Both the position numbers and the translations under genes were made by a program. A DNA stretch of 17,122 nucleotides from a virus. The DNA is taken from UHGV virus genome UHGV-0339891; one strand, given 5' to 3'. The notes under the pieces are model-generated. The model saw only the letters and a list, made by a program, of their open reading frames with translations. It did no database searches and was not told where the DNA came from. Below, in pieces: positions 2,360-8,644 of this stretch. How positions within the stretch are numbered: position 1 is the stretch's first letter; the number at the start of each line of letters is the position of its first letter.

Positions 2360-2842
2360 TTATTTGATAAGAAGTGAAGGTTTCCCAACTTTGAGTTGAG
2401 CGCCGGGGATATTTATTCCTGCTTTTAGTTGGTGTTTGATTGCCAGTTTGTCGGCTTTAATTGTCGTTTCAAACTCAACGTATTCAGGAGGAAGGGCGCT
2501 TGAGTCGATTATTTCTACAGTTTCTGACGGTTTGCGGATTGTTACCTGGTGAATACCTGCTCGAATCTTTTTCTTGCCTACCATTTCAAGCGATGACGCT
2601 ATATATGATTTGATGCTGTCAATCTTATTTTGAATTACTGCGGCTCGCTCATTCAGTGACTTTGCCTCTTCCTTGAGGCGTTCAGCATAACCAGATTCAT
2701 TTTTAATGACGGAAAGAAGTTGCTCTATTTTATCGGTAAATTCTCCTTCCATGCCTTCTATTGTGTCAGCAATCATCTCTGGTTCTAAATCTGAATCCAT
2801 CAATTTTGCGTATTCATTGGCAATTTCATACAGTTTGCTCAC
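2360..2842 (-). CDS. Siphovirus Gp157-family protein (about 160 aa)
   Basis: ORF track 2360..2848 (TTG); better start GTG at 2842 with GGAGG 6 nt upstream; size, coiled-coil character and position next to recT fit the Gp157 family (recalled). Confidence 0.5.
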   Translation of the reverse strand: MSKLYEIANEYAKLMDSDLEPEMIADTIEGMEGEFTDKIEQLLSVIKNESGYAERLKEEAKSLNERAAVIQNKIDSIKSYIASSLEMVGKKKIRAGIHQVTIRKPSETVEIIDSSALPPEYVEFETTIKADKLAIKHQLKAGINIPGAQLKVGKPSLLIK

Positions 2843-3728
2843 TGGCAACCTCCAGTTTCTCTTTGCATTCTATGTAAATGGCTTGTACGTTCTGCTGCAA
2901 TTTCATTCCAGATGTCAGGCGATATGCTTCTGCAAAATATCGCTTCAAATCATCCATGTTTTCTGCCTGAGCCATTTCATCACAAAGAAGTTGTGCTTTA
3001 TCCATTATTTCCTGCTGGCGTTTCCGTTTATCTTCGCGGATATCTTCCTCTGATTTGTGCGGCATTACTGGTTCCTGATGCATACCTTCATCTTCGTTAA
3101 GCAGGTGAATGGCATTATCCAGTCGCTGGGCTTTAGGCCAGTATTTGCTGGCGCGTTTAACTATGGTTTTACGCGCCATCTCTTCCCAGAATGTCTTCCA
3201 CGGTCCATTCTTTGCCTTGCTCGTTGCTTCCACAGCTTTAATTTCTGCCAGACTCATTTCTTCAGTCAGGTAGTCACCATCTGCTGTTTTAACCGTACAA
3301 TAACCACCAACAATAGAGCCTCGCTCACCAAATGCGTTGTATTTGTGGGTTGGTGCTGAATCAAGGCCGTTTGATTCATAGGTGTCGTTTGAGTACACCA
3401 GTTTGCATTGCCCCCACTTAATTGATCCTGTCGACTGTGCAAGGTGAAGTAATCCCATATAGCTGATATCAAGGCAAACCATGCCGTCGCGCGGAACCAG
3501 ATAAGCAAGTTTGCTGGCCGGGTTTAAGGTGATGCCGATCGCCGCAACATTGATGATGGCGTTCTGTGCGCTGGTTGGATTTGCCAGTGCCGTTTTAGCC
3601 AGGTAATCATTTTTCTGGAAATACTGAATTGCAAACTGGCTTTCCTTAGCCCATGTCACCGTCTGTTCAGTCAATGCTCCGCAGAATAACTGCTCCTGCT
3701 GTTTAACGAATTCAACGATATTGCTCAT
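2826..3728 (-). CDS. recT: RecT-family single-strand annealing recombinase
   Basis: 300-aa ORF; C-terminal motif NGPWKTFWEEMARKTIVKRASKYWP resembles E. coli RecT NGPWVTHWEEMAKKTAIRRLFKYLP (recalled); ATG overlaps the upstream stop (ATGA). Confidence 0.75.
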   Translation of the reverse strand: MSNIVEFVKQQEQLFCGALTEQTVTWAKESQFAIQYFQKNDYLAKTALANPTSAQNAIINVAAIGITLNPASKLAYLVPRDGMVCLDISYMGLLHLAQSTGSIKWGQCKLVYSNDTYESNGLDSAPTHKYNAFGERGSIVGGYCTVKTADGDYLTEEMSLAEIKAVEATSKAKNGPWKTFWEEMARKTIVKRASKYWPKAQRLDNAIHLLNEDEGMHQEPVMPHKSEEDIREDKRKRQQEIMDKAQLLCDEMAQAENMDDLKRYFAEAYRLTSGMKLQQNVQAIYIECKEKLEVASEQTV

Positions 3729-4036
3729 GCAGCTTCTCCAAAAATGTGTCTGCGTTTAAATATTGCGAAGGCATATTCAGCCTTAACTCTTTCGGTTATT
3801 GCATCCCAGAACCATTCATCGGCTTTTTCCTGATAGTTACAATCATCATCTTCCAGCCAGTCGATAGCATCCTTAGTATGTTCATCTGGTTTATATGAGC
3901 GAAGCATTTCGCTTATTGGGTCGCAACGTTTGCAGAGGCGATCAACTTCACTGTTGATTCGTTCGTAATCTTCATCAGTAAAACTTGCGATTATTTGCGA
4001 TATTTCACGCTTATCATTCAGAGTCAGAATCATCAT
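3725..4036 (-). CDS. Small strongly acidic protein (103 aa, net charge about -10) in the position of lambda gam
   Basis: ORF track; ATG ATG start with GGAG 4 nt upstream; 25 D/E vs 15 K/R by my count; no recognisable similarity to lambda Gam. Confidence 0.5.
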   Translation of the reverse strand: MMILTLNDKREISQIIASFTDEDYERINSEVDRLCKRCDPISEMLRSYKPDEHTKDAIDWLEDDDCNYQEKADEWFWDAITERVKAEYAFAIFKRRHIFGEAA

Positions 4037-4117
4037 CTTTCTCCTGTTCTTTGTGCTGATTGAGCATTTTGTTCATCTGACGAATGAATTCTTCGTCTGA
4101 CCAGTTATCTGTAAAAC

Positions 4118-4270
4118 TCATTTCCTGCGATACCACGGAAGGTTGATAGCTGATTTCATCGCTTTATTTGCTTCAAGCCACATTTTTGAATCACCAATAA
4201 ATCTGGCTATTACTGCTTTGTTCTGTGCAGCACGAAGCATCTGGTGATTGATGGCTATTTCATTGCGCAT
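4118..4270 (-). CDS. kil: Kil-like small protein (50 aa), called by position and size
   Basis: Translated by hand: MRNEIAINHQMLRAAQNKAVIARFIGDSKMWLEANKAMKSAINLPWYRRK; lies immediately downstream of and overlapping the cIII-like gene, as kil does in lambda. Confidence 0.4.
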   Translation of the reverse strand: MRNEIAINHQMLRAAQNKAVIARFIGDSKMWLEANKAMKSAINLPWYRRK

Positions 4271-4389
4271 AACGTCTCCAGTTGTTTCTTTGCTGCTCTG
4301 ATTAATTGTTTAACTCGGCGTGATAATTCAGATTCGTGCGGGTAGAAAGCGGACATGACGCCGCTACCCGCGAGCTGAAAGTGCATCAT
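4252..4389 (-). CDS. cIII: cIII-like small protein (45 aa)
   Basis: Translated by hand: MMHFQLAGSGVMSAFYPHESELSRRVKQLIRAAKKQLETLCAMK; the central segment resembles the lambda CIII helix (ESLLERITRKLRDGWKRL, recalled). Confidence 0.5.
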
Positions 4390-4464
4390 GGGTAACTCCT
4401 TATATTTGATTGCATAACGAAAACGCCTCGAGTGAAGCGTTATTGGTATGCGGTAAAGCCGCGC

Positions 4465-4776
4465 TTAGGCGGCTGATGTTTCTTCTTTCAGGCTTTCGAG
4501 ATATTTACGTGGGTCGTCGTAACATTGGCATTCGCTGTACCAATCCACCCAGCGATCAGTAAGCCCCATCTCTGATAAATCTTCATCGGTAAGGCTCTCA
4601 TCCCACATCTCAAGGCCGTTAGCATTGCAGTAATCAGGCTTGATGTTGTTGTCATACTGAAAGGCGTCATAATCAGCCAGTGCATCCATCAGGCGAACAC
4701 CCTCTTCAACACTTGCCACTTCTACAATGAACGGTTTCATAGGTACTTGCGGGATATGCCAGACACGTAATTTCAT
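4465..4776 (-). CDS. Small strongly acidic protein (103 aa from MKLRVWH, net charge about -14)
   Basis: ORF track 4465..4830; preferred ATG at 4776..4774 with GGAGG upstream; the upstream extension of the track ORF runs through a terminator hairpin. Confidence 0.5.
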   Translation of the reverse strand: MKLRVWHIPQVPMKPFIVEVASVEEGVRLMDALADYDAFQYDNNIKPDYCNANGLEMWDESLTDEDLSEMGLTDRWVDWYSECQCYDDPRKYLESLKEETSAA

Positions 4777-4786
4777 ATTTCCTCCG

Positions 4787-4815
4787 TCAAAAAAATCGCC
4801 CTCACACTGGAGGGC
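4787..4815 (-). terminator. Intrinsic terminator inside the pL operon
   Basis: Minus-strand stem GCCCTC/GAGGGC (plus 4798-4803 / 4810-4815) followed by U7 (plus A-run 4789-4795). Confidence 0.5.
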
Positions 4816-4908
4816 AAAGAAGATTTCCAATAATCAGAACAAGTCGGCTCCTGTTTAGTTACGAGCGACATTGCTCACATAGCAGACTCGCAAATCTGCT
4901 ATAGGCGC

Positions 4909-5070
4909 TTATTCGCATCGCATGACAACATCAAATTTTTCGAGATTACTTTGTCGCAACAATCCTTCTTCTACGCGGTCAGCTTTTCTATAATTATCAA
5001 ATTCGAAATGTTTAATTACTTCTTTCGTTTCTCGCTCTATAACTTCAACAATGTATTTCTTATTCATCAT
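4909..5070 (-). CDS. Small hypothetical protein (53 aa)
   Basis: Not in ORF track; hand translation MMNKKYIVEVIERETKEVIKHFEFDNYRKADRVEEGLLRQSNLEKFDVVMRCE; ATG overlaps the upstream TGA (ATGA); AT-rich. Confidence 0.35.
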   Translation of the reverse strand: MMNKKYIVEVIERETKEVIKHFEFDNYRKADRVEEGLLRQSNLEKFDVVMRCE

Positions 5071-5363
5071 TCTTCCCCAAGAGCTTTTCTGATTGCTGCA
5101 AGACCTTTATTAACAGCTCCATACCATTCTGGATATGTTGTCTTTGTTCTATTTTTGGTTTGCTTAAGTAATAACTGAAGTGCTTCGAGAAGGTCAGGTG
5201 CTGCCGCTATTAGATTGGCATCTTCAATGCGTTGAACTTCCTCACAGATTGCAATATACGAACGCCAGCCTGCGCCATTTTCAAGTGAGTCTGCCTGGAT
5301 GATTTTAATCTCATCGCCATCCATCATTATTTCCCACTTACCTTCAGTACCTTTAAATTCCAT
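5067..5363 (-). CDS. Hypothetical protein (98 aa from MEFKGTEG)
   Basis: ORF track 5067..5369 (GTG); ATG at 5363 with AGAGGTG upstream. Confidence 0.5.
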   Translation of the reverse strand: MEFKGTEGKWEIMMDGDEIKIIQADSLENGAGWRSYIAICEEVQRIEDANLIAAAPDLLEALQLLLKQTKNRTKTTYPEWYGAVNKGLAAIRKALGEE

Positions 5364-5383
5364 GTTCACCTCTGTTGTTTATG

Positions 5384-5411
5384 TCAAAAATAAAGGCCGA
5401 CTATGCGGCCT
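5384..5411 (-). terminator. Intrinsic terminator inside the pL operon
   Basis: Minus-strand stem AGGCCG/CGGCCT with 6-nt loop followed by UUUAUUUUU, starting 5 nt after the stop of the 5416..5865 gene. Confidence 0.45.
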
Positions 5412-5415
5412 GAAA

Positions 5416-5865
5416 TTACTTAACCAATGATGCTGCATATTCGATAAGGTAAAGCTTTGGGGCCAGCCAAATTTTTAACCAAGTCATATTGGTTACTACA
5501 CCAATAATAAAAATCCCCCACAGAGTCAAAACTCCAACCAATGGCATGATAAGAAGGTTAATATCTCCTTTGCTATCCCAAACCATTGTCGGCCTGTATT
5601 TTGGATTTCCCCTCTCCCATGAGTATCCTTCATCACCGATTTTACCTGTCTCAACTCTTTGGCACTGCTTCTTCATAAACCAGAAAACCAGTGGGATTGT
5701 TAGAATGGCTATTAATGTTTTAATCAGACTGTCAACCATATTCCATAGCAGCAACTGATGAACAACATCAGGAATCTGTGCCTGGCTAAATGAAACAGCC
5801 GCGTCTATTCCATTACTGGCTTTTTGCAGTAGTTCTACGAGAATCTTGTTTGCTTGTTCTTCCAT
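5416..5865 (-). CDS. Predicted two-TM inner-membrane protein (149 aa), first gene after N; possible superinfection-exclusion type function
   Basis: ORF track; ATG preceded by GAGGTG; two hydrophobic stretches (LIKTLIAILTIPLVFWF and LLIMPLVGVLTLWGIFIIGVV). Confidence 0.55.
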   Translation of the reverse strand: MEEQANKILVELLQKASNGIDAAVSFSQAQIPDVVHQLLLWNMVDSLIKTLIAILTIPLVFWFMKKQCQRVETGKIGDEGYSWERGNPKYRPTMVWDSKGDINLLIMPLVGVLTLWGIFIIGVVTNMTWLKIWLAPKLYLIEYAASLVK

Positions 5866-5984
5866 ATATCACCTCAAATAAGTGGTTTGCTGCCTAATTT
5901 AATTTTCTGGCGACCAACACAAGTCACACCCATTTCACTGCGTGGCTTGCGGTAGTAAATACGGTTATGTTTACGCTCGACTTC

Positions 5985-6173
5985 TTATGCCTTCTTGCAG
6001 CGAAGGCTTCCGAGTGATGCTGCTTTATCTGCTCTGACGCAACCAGAGAGCTTTAGCGCAATTTTTCGCGCCAGTCGCTGCTCTTGCATTGCCTGTTCAC
6101 GTTGAGCCTGTCTGCGTGCTCTGCGGCGGTTTCTGGCATTATCGTCAGCCAGATATGTAATAACTACTGTCAT
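5985..6173 (-). CDS. N: N-like transcription antiterminator, short (62 aa) with an arginine-rich motif
   Basis: ATG with GGAGG 5 nt upstream; N-terminal motif NARNRRRARRQAQREQ; first gene downstream of pL and nutL. Confidence 0.5.
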   Translation of the reverse strand: MTVVITYLADDNARNRRRARRQAQREQAMQEQRLARKIALKLSGCVRADKAASLGSLRCKKA

Positions 6174-6367
6174 GTTGACCTCCGATGATTGACTTTGGTG
6201 ATTGGATGGCCGGTGCTGAATTCCGGCTTACTGGTTAGAGCGCCCGCACTACCAGTGACGCTGTCTTGAGGCGCAGATTGGTTACTGCTTGCCATGAGCG
6301 CTGTTTATACATTGGTCGAGCATCAGCCTGCTCATTCATCCAATCCCAAAGCCAACTACTCTTTGGT

Positions 6368-6408
6368 TCCCGCATTTCGGCGGGACAATCCCATCAATGT
6401 TAAAGAGC
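6368..6408 (-). promoter_or_regulatory. nutL (boxA GGCTCTTTAA plus boxB hairpin)
   Basis: Minus-strand GGCTCTTTAA (plus 6400-6408), 13-nt spacer, then hairpin CCCGC-CGAAAT-GCGGG (plus 6368-6386); the same boxB occurs at nutR. Confidence 0.6.
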
Positions 6409-6454
6409 CTGCCAATCTGTTCCGTTTGGCTACCAGCGTCCTGCTGATGGCTTA

Positions 6455-6540
6455 AAGATAACTTAGGTTATAGGTGTGGTCAATAACATAATTTATATTT
6501 TGTGGTAAATAAGTTATAAGTGATGGATAACAAAGGTATT
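6455..6540 (-). promoter_or_regulatory. pL promoter with OL operator sites
   Basis: Minus strand: -35 TTGACC (plus 6478-6483), 17-bp spacer, -10 TATCTT (plus 6455-6460); operators ATAACTTAGGTTAT 6458-6471, ATAACATAATTTAT 6483-6496, and weaker ATAACAAAGGTATT 6527-6540. Confidence 0.55.
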
Positions 6541-6660
6541 TTATTTTTGTAAATGTTGCTGATTGATTGGTGTTTGAGGGCTTGCGTGCGGGGTGAAGGT
6601 GTTACCTTTGGCTTGATGCTTGTCTATGATGATGATGGGTGATTGGGTGGTGAACGGCAG

Positions 6661-6695
6661 GAAAAGAAAACCCGGCGCTGAGGCCGGGTGTTTTT
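6661..6695. terminator. Bidirectional intrinsic terminator ending the cI operon
   Basis: Stem CCCGGC/GCCGGG (6671-6676 / 6683-6688) flanked by TGTTTTT on plus and TTTTCTTTTC on minus. Confidence 0.55.
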
Positions 6696-6990
6696 AGTCT
6701 TTTCTTTTGCTTAGCATTTCGTCGATTTCTAAGTCAATACGATATTGATCTATTGCTTTTCTCTCGTTTGGGGTTGGTATTTTATACTGTTCAATTAGAT
6801 CTGTTGTGTATTTTATTTCATCTAATGTGATTTTTATATCAGATAGAATCTCTTTTATATCAATTAGATGCTCTTCTTCTTTTGCGCGATTAGAGCTATG
6901 TTCAATCATTTGAGATAGCTTTTTGCTAATGCTTAGCAAAACAAAAAGAATGATGACCAAAACAACAACAAAAACTATCAGAAATTCCAT
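6694..6990 (-). CDS. Small membrane-anchored coiled-coil protein (98 aa), a moron in the rexAB position downstream of cI
   Basis: ORF track; ATG with GGAGG 4 nt upstream; N-terminal TM helix EFLIVFVVVLVIILFVLLSI then a charged helical domain; AT-rich; terminator 6 nt after the stop. Confidence 0.55.
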   Translation of the reverse strand: MEFLIVFVVVLVIILFVLLSISKKLSQMIEHSSNRAKEEEHLIDIKEILSDIKITLDEIKYTTDLIEQYKIPTPNERKAIDQYRIDLEIDEMLSKRKD

Positions 6991-7030
6991 TATCCCTCCG
7001 CACTTCCGTAAGTCTTCTTCTGATTATCGG

Positions 7031-7738
7031 TTACCAACTATGAGACGACCAGAATACTCTGCCAATAATCCTTACGGTTTTATGAAATTCATCTCTATCC
7101 ATTACTTCATCCGGGTACTCTTCGCGATTTATTGATCTGATTATCACCGATGTAGGGGTGGCGATTAATGTTTTTACTCGTAACAAATCAGACTGGCAAA
7201 TAGCGTAGGTTTTACCATCTCTGATTGTGGTATCTTGCGTGTTAACACCAACAACATCGCCATCGTGAAGCGTTGGTTCCATGCTTTGCCCTACAACCCT
7301 AACTAGCTTGGCTGATCTTTCAGATACTCCCATCTTTTTCAGATAGTGCTTTCTGAAAACCAAAGAGAACTCCGATGATTCCTCTAGCTCGCAGCTACCG
7401 CTTCCAGCTGAAAGCGAAACGTTAAGAAGAGGCAACGCAACAAACTCGTCATCGTTTCTTTTAATGTCTTCCCATACCACAGCTTTTAAAGATGACTCAC
7501 GGACATTGGATGGTTCTTCATGTGCACCATCCCTCATTTCACCAATACCAGAACTAAGCCATTCAGGACGCACTTTTAAAGCATTGGCTAATTCAACCAT
7601 CTTGCGAGATCCGTTTGTTTTACCGGACGACATCTTCTGTATGGCTGGCTGAGATATTCCAACCATGTCAGCAAGCTGTGATTGTGATACCCCTGCTGAG
7701 CTCATGGCTGCATTTAGTCTTTCTGCGAATGTTTTCAT
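7031..7738 (-). CDS. cI: cI-type prophage repressor (HTH plus LexA-like S24 peptidase domain)
   Basis: ORF track 7031..7768 (TTG); ATG at 7738 (MKTFAERL); HTH segment QSQLADMVGISQPAIQKM; Ala-Gly site in LSAGSG; Ser in GQSMEP and Lys in LLRVKTL. Confidence 0.8.
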   Translation of the reverse strand: MKTFAERLNAAMSSAGVSQSQLADMVGISQPAIQKMSSGKTNGSRKMVELANALKVRPEWLSSGIGEMRDGAHEEPSNVRESSLKAVVWEDIKRNDDEFVALPLLNVSLSAGSGSCELEESSEFSLVFRKHYLKKMGVSERSAKLVRVVGQSMEPTLHDGDVVGVNTQDTTIRDGKTYAICQSDLLRVKTLIATPTSVIIRSINREEYPDEVMDRDEFHKTVRIIGRVFWSSHSW

Positions 7739-7745
7739 ACCCACA

Positions 7746-7816
7746 AATCTATAACTACGGTTATCCAAAGTAAAATAACAAAGGTTATTGCTATTTTTTA
7801 TAACTTGAGTTATCTT
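7746..7816. promoter_or_regulatory. OR region: three operators with divergent pRM and pR
   Basis: Operators ATAACTACGGTTAT 7751-7764, ATAACAAAGGTTAT 7775-7788, ATAACTTGAGTTAT 7800-7813; pR -35 TTGCTA 7788-7793, 17 bp, -10 TATCTT 7811-7816; pRM (minus) -35 TTTACT 7769-7774, 17 bp, -10 TAGATT 7746-7751, giving a near-leaderless cI. Confidence 0.6.
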
Positions 7817-7849
7817 TGGTTATAAGTAATGACCACAAGAGGTATGCTC

Positions 7850-8074
7850 ATGAATTTAGTAATTCAACGAGCCTTGAAAATTGTCGGTAGCCAAAAGCGT
7901 CTTGCCGACAAGTGTGGTGTAACGCAGCCAGCAGTACACAAATGGCTGAAAGGCGGGTTGGTCTCTCCAGAGAAAGTTACCGCCATCGTTAACGCCACTG
8001 GAGGGCAGATCAAGGCTTACGAAATTCGCCCCGATTTGCCACACCTGTTTCCAAAACCGAATCAGGCAGCATAA
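7850..8074 (+). CDS. cro: Cro-like repressor (74 aa from MNLVIQ)
   Basis: ORF track 7829..8074; preferred ATG 7850 with AAGAGG 7 nt upstream; HTH-like segment QKRLADKCGVTQPAVHKW; first gene right of OR. Confidence 0.65.
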   Translation: MNLVIQRALKIVGSQKRLADKCGVTQPAVHKWLKGGLVSPEKVTAIVNATGGQIKAYEIRPDLPHLFPKPNQAA

Positions 8075-8081
8075 GTAACAC

Positions 8082-8126
8082 CGCTCTTTAACAGTCATGG
8101 TCCTCATTCCCGCCGAAATGCGGGAA
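8082..8126 (+). promoter_or_regulatory. nutR (boxA CGCTCTTTAA plus boxB hairpin)
   Basis: CGCTCTTTAA 8082-8091, 15-nt spacer, hairpin TTCCCGC-CGAAAT-GCGGGAA 8107-8126, identical to the nutL boxB. Confidence 0.6.
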
Positions 8127-8132
8127 TACAAC

Positions 8133-8167
8133 GCGCATAAGTTGATGCGCATAACTTCTTATTTGTT
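8133..8167 (+). terminator. Possible tR1-like terminator/pause hairpin
   Basis: Hairpin GCGCAT-AAGTTG-ATGCGC followed by a T-rich tract between nutR and cII; tail is weak. Confidence 0.3.
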
Positions 8168-8183
8168 AAGGAAATACTTACAT

Positions 8184-8462
8184 ATGCAACTTACAAGTAC
8201 TCGCAAGAAAGCGAATGCAATTACAAGCAACATCCTGAATCGAATTGCTGTACGTGGTCAGCGAAAGGTTGCCGACGCGTTAGGGATTAATGAATCGCAA
8301 ATTTCGCGATGGAAAGATAGCTTCATCCCAAAAATGGGAATGCTTCTGGCTGTTCTTGAATGGGGTGTTGAAGACGAGGAGTTGGCGGAACTGGCTAAGC
8401 AAGTAGCCAGAATGCTGACAAAAGAAAAAGCCCCGAAGAACGGCGAATTCTTCGAGGCCTGA
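8184..8462 (+). CDS. cII: cII-like transcriptional activator (92 aa)
   Basis: ATG 8184 with AAGGAAA upstream; SQISRWKDSFIPKMGMLLAVLEWGV matches lambda CII SQISRWKRDWIPKFSMLLAVLEWGV (recalled). Confidence 0.75.
   Translation: MQLTSTRKKANAITSNILNRIAVRGQRKVADALGINESQISRWKDSFIPKMGMLLAVLEWGVEDEELAELAKQVARMLTKEKAPKNGEFFEA
8421..8458 (-). terminator. Minus-strand intrinsic terminator inside the 3' end of cII (OOP-like antisense RNA terminator)
   Basis: Minus-strand hairpin CCUCGAAGAA-UUCGCCG-UUCUUCGGGG followed by CUUUUUCUUUU; no T-run on the plus strand. Confidence 0.45.
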
Positions 8463-8644
8463 TGTAGAAAGACTGGATCAATCCACAGGAGTAATTATGA
8501 CAAAACGTCGTAAGAAATACCAGGAAAAAGAAGAGATTCGACACCCTGATTCACCTGAGGGATTAGTGGTAGCCGCAGCAAATAACAGGGTGTTCGCAGA
8601 GCGCCTTGTTGGTGTTTACAGACTAGCCAAAGCAGGAGTGAAAC

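Follow-up and report, generated by a model that had tools for sequence, protein, structure and literature searches.

The interval between the antiterminator gene N and cIII in the early-left (PL) operon of lambdoid phages is a hotspot for accessory and host-interaction genes, among them SieB of lambda and P22 and Ral and Ea10 of lambda. Lambdoid genomes are reportedly organised as mosaics of modules and "morons", a description said to go back to Hendrix and to Juhala and colleagues in 2000. In P22, Y8K6 (orf78) lies in the ral-17 interval and gene 17 lies immediately upstream of cIII (c3). According to the passages on this protein in PMC6486243 and PMC9409062, both of which cite Semerjian et al. 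1989, P22 Gp17 counteracts the exclusion exerted by the Fels-2 prophage. Here we describe the corresponding interval, positions 4465..5865, of the virus genome UHGV-0339891, whose whole stretch of 17,122 nucleotides (nt) is referred to as the window. The window is a lambdoid (lambda/P22-type) prophage, and its left-operon genes are read right to left on the minus strand; all features below lie on that strand unless marked (+). The block between N and cIII contains four genes, encoding a membrane protein of 149 amino acids (aa), a 98-aa protein, a 53-aa protein and a 103-aa acidic protein designated gp17. It is probably a typical mosaic accessory stretch of the PL operon, composed of three exchangeable cassettes that are joined at terminator-containing linkers.

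Results

Independent assortment of three cassettes

The four genes of the block are all on the minus strand, and each has a plausible ribosome-binding site (RBS). Cassette 1 is the membrane-protein gene (5416..5865), cassette 2 is the 98-aa gene (5067..5363) with the AT-rich 53-aa gene (4909..5070), and cassette 3 is gp17 (4465..4776). An initial annotation, made from the DNA alone, had described four open reading frames (ORFs), an ATGA overlap, a net charge of -14, two hydrophobic segments and two terminators; all are present where it placed them. Its proposal of a variable accessory slot between N and cIII, equivalent to the interval that holds sieB, ral and ea10 in lambda, is borne out by the comparisons below.

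The three cassettes occur independently of one another. A single locus covering 80% or more of 4300..6100 was not found in any phage record or in any of 5,426 complete E. coli genomes, although 2,304 of these genomes match parts of the region. In the 54 IMG/VR loci that share this N type and extend at least 2.5 kb downstream of it, the membrane gene is found in five, the 98-aa gene in seven, gp17 in four and the 53-aa gene in one. All four genes together are found in none of these 54 loci, in none of 80 loci that carry the 53-aa gene, and in no other record searched. Specifically, gp17 comes directly after the membrane gene in the prophage of E. coli BEN2908, and in L017 the membrane gene is accompanied by the 98-aa gene and a 52-aa gene, without gp17.

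The junction upstream of gp17 is conserved on its own. Homology to other prophages starts about 45 nt upstream of terminator T2, and T2 together with this linker (4787..4860) precedes gp17 in the window, in BEN2908 and in TUM12368. In HF4s (L002), T2 (2839..2860) precedes an unrelated 322-aa TolA/Agt-like gene. T2 therefore lies within a linker common to cassettes, and this linker is likely a recombination boundary between them.

Like lambdoid morons, the block consists of gene-plus-terminator units of deviant GC content (0.32–0.41, versus 0.46 for the window) between conserved genes, and its junctions have linker sequences in common. Unlike classical promoter-gene-terminator morons, its genes have no detected promoter of their own and are operon-embedded accessory genes.

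On the basis of homology, one gene of the block, gp17, belongs to a known counter-defence family, and the other three belong to catalogued families. A search of PADLOC-DB 2.0 with the four proteins gave no match other than a chance-level DruE fragment (E = 0.04).

Terminators and a truncated N gene

The first intrinsic terminator after PL, T1, is located at 5384..5411 (hairpin 5411..5394 followed by TTATTTTT), downstream of the membrane gene, with a folding free energy (dG) of -9.7 kcal/mol and a z-score of -2.45. The second, T2, is located at 4787..4817 (hairpin 4817..4796 followed by T7; z-score -1.8), with a dG of -16.1 kcal/mol for a 56-nt stretch folded around the hairpin (4780..4835). 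A terminator-like hairpin that the initial annotation did not list, T3, is located between gp17 and cIII at 4414..4441 (hairpin 4441..4422; z-score -3.2). Over 3500..8200 as a whole, terminator-like sites are not significantly more numerous than expected (7 versus 4.0 ± 2.4), but the individual sites are exactly intergenic and conserved. Specifically, the BEN2908 prophage has the same three hairpins, with identical copies of T1 and T2, and T3 is conserved both there and in Salmonella phage L. The hairpin upstream of gene 17 in phage L is kept by compensatory stem changes (GCCCTC/GAGGGC versus GCCGCTC/GGGCGGC), and in the annotation of phage L that gene has a predicted terminator on each flank. 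The bracketing intrinsic terminators proposed in the initial annotation are real. In addition, an 11-bp perfect hairpin without a U-tract is found just past the stop codon of the 53-aa gene, at about 4869..4903 (approximate bounds, counted by hand from the dot-bracket of the folded stretch 4860..4912); possible roles are those of a processing site or a boundary between cassettes.

The N gene of the window is truncated. It encodes 62 aa (5985..6173; phrog_271, E = 1e-17) and is cut by a TAA at codon 63 (5985..5987). The 119 nt that seem to separate N from the membrane gene are the dead 3' part of N, which continues in the same frame (5874..5984; translation EVERKHNRIYYRKPRSEMGVTCVGRQKIKLGSKPLI, then a stop) and ends with a TGA 8 nt before the membrane-gene ATG. 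In relatives with an intact N, the RBS of the membrane gene overlaps the N stop codon. Residues 1–62 are identical to those of the intact N proteins (99–101 aa) of HF4s and of the E. coli SW4848 prophage, and Gally differs at one residue. Codon 63 is GAA in HF4s, Gally and the SW4848 prophage and TAA in the window; among IMG/VR contigs, the TAA allele is found in none and the GAA allele in 95. The C-terminal part of lambda N contacts RNA polymerase. Because N(1–62) retains the arginine-rich motif but is without the C-terminal third, we infer that antitermination is reduced or absent in the window prophage, which may be defective in delayed-early expression.

The position of T1 divides the block. 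There is no predicted intrinsic terminator from PL to the stop codon of the membrane gene, and the stretch 5866..5984 folds no better than its shuffles. Because the membrane gene lies upstream of T1, the first terminator after PL, it should be co-transcribed with N independently of antitermination, and the cassette 1 protein would be made together with N as an immediate-early product. The other three genes lie behind the predicted terminators T1, T2 and T3. Genes behind T1 would need N-modified RNA polymerase, and with N truncated at codon 63 they would probably be poorly expressed on induction. The dependence on N that the initial annotation had assumed for the block is therefore wrong for the membrane gene, which lies before T1, and doubtful for the others, given the stop at codon 63.

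The membrane protein of cassette 1

The 149-aa protein (5416..5865; RBS GAGGTG) is a two-transmembrane (two-TM) protein, probably of the inner membrane, that belongs to the phrog_3054 family, with hydrophobic stretches at about residues 43–65 and 102–128. The family comprises 516 clusters at 90% identity, all labelled hypothetical, and a profile search returned 2,614 clusters at 50% identity with E ≤ 1e-3, of which 1,192 have E ≤ 1e-10; all 49 sampled family members match phrog_3054. The protein itself has no Pfam match at E ≤ 0.1, no NCBIfam match and no PADLOC match. A Pfam scan of 49 diverse members gave only scattered single chance matches, a cluster look-up of ten distant members gave no name other than "hypothetical protein", sequence and profile searches of the PDB with the family returned nothing credible, and no literature was found on phrog_3054.

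The family has conserved ends and a variable centre. The N-terminus is a conserved segment of about 45 aa (A..L..LL.KA..G.DAAV.FSQAQIPDV..QLL.W), the middle consists of two poorly conserved TM segments flanking a hypervariable loop of 15–76 aa, and the C-terminus is strongly conserved (WLKIW.APKLYLIEYAASL.K). The mean fraction of the majority residue is 0.66 for the N-terminus, 0.32 for TM1, 0.27 for the loop, 0.24 for TM2 and 0.80 for the C-terminus. A positive-inside count, which is a heuristic only, predicts a cytoplasmic loop for 45 of 46 members, implying an N-out/C-out topology.

The position of the gene also varies. It directly follows N with an 8-nt gap in HF4s and in L018-L020, follows ral in L015-L017, and in Pantoea and related prophages it belongs to the late operon, downstream of the lysis cassette or of Q. 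In the last group, homologues with about 60% identity (L006-L008, 5001..5453; L009, 5001..5450) are preceded by holin, endolysin and spanin genes or lie a short distance past Q. Downstream of one Pantoea homologue lies an unrelated 10-bp terminator. A holin or lysis role was considered and dropped, since the Pantoea loci already carry canonical holin, endolysin and spanin genes and the E. coli and Salmonella copies lie in the early-left operon.

The initial annotation had noted that the membrane protein sits where superinfection-exclusion genes are usually found, and a superinfection-exclusion or abortive-infection determinant that guards the lysogen or the freshly infected cell would agree with several of its features. 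It has two TM segments, its gene behaves as a position-hopping gene-plus-terminator unit, its centre is hypervariable between conserved termini, and immediate-early placement would suit an early block of the kind ascribed to T4 Imm. However, the family is unrelated to lambda SieB (PF14163), with an hhalign probability of 0.3%, and the gene is present together with SieB and Ral in the prophages L015 and L016. Moreover, lambda sieB is on the plus strand, opposite to the minus-strand PL operon, and is expressed from the prophage, whereas the 149-aa gene is co-oriented with PL. No sigma-70 promoter-like site was found upstream of the membrane gene in three different contexts, and because no such site precedes the gene, expression in the prophage state is not indicated. 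A loop that is predicted to be cytoplasmic is a poor fit to surface recognition of an incoming phage, the Pfam and PADLOC searches with it returned no match, and experimental data on the protein were not found. Thus, an exclusion role in this sense is unlikely. Our best guess for cassette 1 is an envelope-level accessory function in infection or induction, for which phage exclusion would be one option.

The lambda-like prophage L015, which encodes an identical 149-aa protein, has a BstA_C-domain gene (abortive infection; 3330..4235) directly after its repressor gene.

The 98-aa protein and its coupled partner in cassette 2

The 98-aa protein (5067..5363; RBS AGAGGTG) matches phrog_1273 (E = 5e-32) and is assigned to PF27050 (Phage_P22_Y8K6). 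This assignment is made through homologues and phrog_1273, the model being absent from the Pfam set scanned. Specifically, homologues at 54–96% identity carry a precomputed PF27050 match, and so does the 98-aa gene of L017, whose neighbour is an identical membrane gene. The window protein had no NCBIfam match, and sequence and profile searches of the PDB with it returned nothing credible.

P22 Y8K6, which belongs to the "XkdD/Y8K6 family" of NCBI, occupies the same slot upstream of gene 17 as the 98-aa gene. The P22 Y8K6 family and the 98-aa protein have in common a core, EDANLIAAAPDLLEAL, and a C-terminal AAISKALGEE. The family is itself mosaic, with a swappable N-terminal β part and a variable C-terminal helix. 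P22 Y8K6 is followed by an overlapping small ORF (orf67), in the same way as the 98-aa gene is followed by its 53-aa partner, and these partner ORFs are non-homologous between variants.

The partner gene (4909..5070; phrog_6949) has a GC content of 0.32. Its ATG and the TGA that ends the 98-aa gene overlap (GAAGAATGATGAAT), consistent with translational coupling. It is a real gene under purifying selection. Among 39 distinct DNA versions in IMG/VR, the substitutions are distributed 21/12/56 by codon position, and the synonymous fraction is 0.56 versus 0.19 expected (p = 3e-15). Because the first codon is GTG or ATA in many versions, the true start is probably the second ATG, giving a protein of 52 aa. 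The gene abuts a 98-aa homologue in 61 of the 80 loci that carry it, and such a homologue is detectable upstream in 65. Cassette 2 would thus supply a P22 Y8K6-family protein and a translationally coupled 52-aa partner, both encoded by real genes.

Small overlapping ORFs that are non-homologous to the 53-aa gene also follow other Y8K6-family genes, namely a 62-aa ORF in L024 (2788..2976), a 42-aa ORF in L021 (2794..2922) and orf67 in P22. Co-variation between the C-terminal segment and the partner ORF was considered and rejected: P0195 has the same C-terminal segment as the window protein, and its partner is an unrelated 62-aa ORF.

The gene-17 homologue of cassette 3

The product of 4465..4776 (RBS GGAGGAAAT) is a member of the P22 gene-17 family, and by homology an acidic anti-exclusion factor. 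It matches PF17420 ("Superinfection exclusion gene product 17") with E = 7e-56 and 186.8 bits, versus a Pfam gathering cut-off of 25, over residues 1–98 of the 98-position model; it also matches phrog_1510, and all 120 listed homologues carry PF17420. P22 gene 17 (PF17420 "GP17") encodes 103 aa, like gp17, and both genes are immediately upstream of cIII. The gp17-cIII stretch has about 83% DNA identity to P22-like Salmonella phages, and gp17 is 91% identical to a widespread Salmonella cluster of the family (P0242). The predicted terminators that flank gene 17 in P22-like phages and phage L match those of the window, and the order is the same in phage L. The setting differs from that of P22: the prophage is of the E. 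coli type, its N and its immunity region are different, and RecT takes the place of Erf.

The family comprises 246 clusters at 90% identity. It is found in temperate and in virulent phages, including G7C-like coliphages and a Pectobacterium myophage, and the relevant passage of PMC9409062 adds Kuttervirus. Homology supports the assignment of window gp17 as a counter-defence gene. The database and PGAP name "superinfection exclusion protein" is misleading, since the role given to Gp17 in the cited passages is to counteract exclusion. By homology, gp17 would let the phage grow in cells with a P2-like (Fels-2-type) prophage exclusion system, and it would most likely act by direct binding of a defence component.

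The initial annotation had read the acidic protein as a candidate DNA mimic with an anti-restriction or anti-defence role. The anti-defence part is supported, through homology to PF17420, and the DNA-mimic part is not. Gp17 has a net charge of -14 and a pI of 4.1, and the family is uniformly acidic (median net charge -14, n = 109), which is necessary, but not sufficient, for a mimic directed against restriction enzymes or other defence proteins that bind DNA (EcoKI or BREX, for example). The occurrence of the family in virulent phages and its location in the slot that Ral occupies in lambda and P22 would also agree with such a role. However, gp17 has no sequence or structural similarity to known mimics (Ocr, ArdA, Ugi-like). 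Specifically, an AlphaFold model from 30 sequences (pLDDT 92.5, pTM 0.80) has a small α/β fold that matches no known DNA-mimic or anti-restriction fold, a search of BFVD with the model returned only gp17-like proteins, and sequence and profile searches of the PDB with gp17 gave nothing credible. In addition, the invariant residues are mostly aromatic or polar and not acidic (P9, Q10, F16, Y36, D37, F39, Q40, K46, D48, Y49, N51, W76 and W79), and the most acidic segment, residues 57–75, is the least conserved and is partly absent in distant members. A DNA mimic is therefore an improbable reading of gp17, and a P22 gene-17 homologue flanked by terminators would best describe cassette 3.

The surrounding left operon and immunity region

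The promoter and nut sites of the left operon are found upstream of the block. A PL-like promoter (TTGACC-17-TATCTT) is located at 6455..6483, just upstream of nutL and N. The nutL site (6367..6408) consists of boxA GCTCTTTAACA and the boxB hairpin CCCGCCGAAATGCGGGAA, and nutR (8083..8126, (+)) has an identical boxA and an identical boxB; the nut motif was matched in none of 200 shuffles. An alternative nutL candidate at 6209..6242, consisting of CGCTCTAA and GCCGG...CCGGC, was dropped, since it shows no folding (z-score 0.24) and the pair with identical boxA and boxB is 6367..6408 and 8083..8126. An Rfam scan of 3500..8500 gave no match.

Downstream of the block, cIII (4255..4389; PF08134, E = 2e-30) forms the right-hand boundary of the accessory slot and is followed by Kil (4118..4270; PF06301). 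Beyond Kil, the minus strand encodes small ORFs, RecT (2826..3728) and Gp157. A second acidic 103-aa protein (3725..4036; net charge -10; phrog_3486) is encoded directly upstream of RecT, overlapping the RecT start, and has no Pfam match.

In the immunity region, a CI-type repressor with Peptidase_S24 and helix-turn-helix (HTH) domains (7031..7768) is divergent from a Cro/YdaS-type gene (7829..8074, (+)). Another gene for a 98-aa protein (6694..6990; GC 0.30) lies directly downstream of the repressor gene, which is the position of lambda rex, and is accompanied by a bidirectional terminator (6670..6689). Its product, which matches phrog_18389, combines a TM segment at the N-terminus with a charged tail, read here as probably helical; similarity to ZorB is a weak, chance-level match only (E = 0.009). 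The gene also follows the repressor gene in L025 and L026. An exclusion or defence function expressed from the prophage would be assigned more plausibly to this gene than to that of the 149-aa protein.

Discussion

The comparisons described here are consistent with the reading of the block as three cassettes that are exchanged at terminator-containing linkers. Four points weigh against this reading or parts of it. For three of the four proteins any role is putative. Immediate-early expression is predicted for the membrane gene because no intrinsic terminator is predicted between PL and its stop codon, and Rho-dependent termination is not predictable. N(1–62) could keep partial activity. The Gp17 phenotype, as given in the cited passages, comes from Salmonella P22 and Fels-2, and the specificity may differ in E. 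coli.

The weakest alternative is a single anti-defence or exclusion operon in which a membrane sensor and soluble effectors, encoded by the four genes, work together. It would agree with the adjacency of the four genes, their common strand and their shared PL transcription unit, but it is highly improbable, because the genes assort independently with none of the 80 or 54 loci carrying all four, terminators and common linker sequences separate them, and only the 98-aa and 53-aa genes travel together (65 of 80 loci).

By itself, the three-cassette block adds little, being another combination of catalogued cassettes in the best-known lambdoid mosaic hotspot. Its individual parts have wider implications. 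The truncated N is a warning against assuming delayed-early gene expression in the window prophage. The small partners of Y8K6-family genes are interchangeable and translationally coupled to them. Gene-17 proteins, a widespread and conserved group, are mislabelled "superinfection exclusion protein" although the role reported in the cited passages is counter-defence. Finally, phrog_3054 is a very large family of membrane proteins, whose gene is often the first after N. We suggest, tentatively and as one of the less likely outcomes, that phrog_3054 could define a new class of phage envelope-acting proteins with a role in early exclusion or anti-defence. The strongly conserved N- and C-terminal segments would fit such a class, in which the hypervariable loop would set the specificity and the product of the first gene after N would precede any other accessory function.

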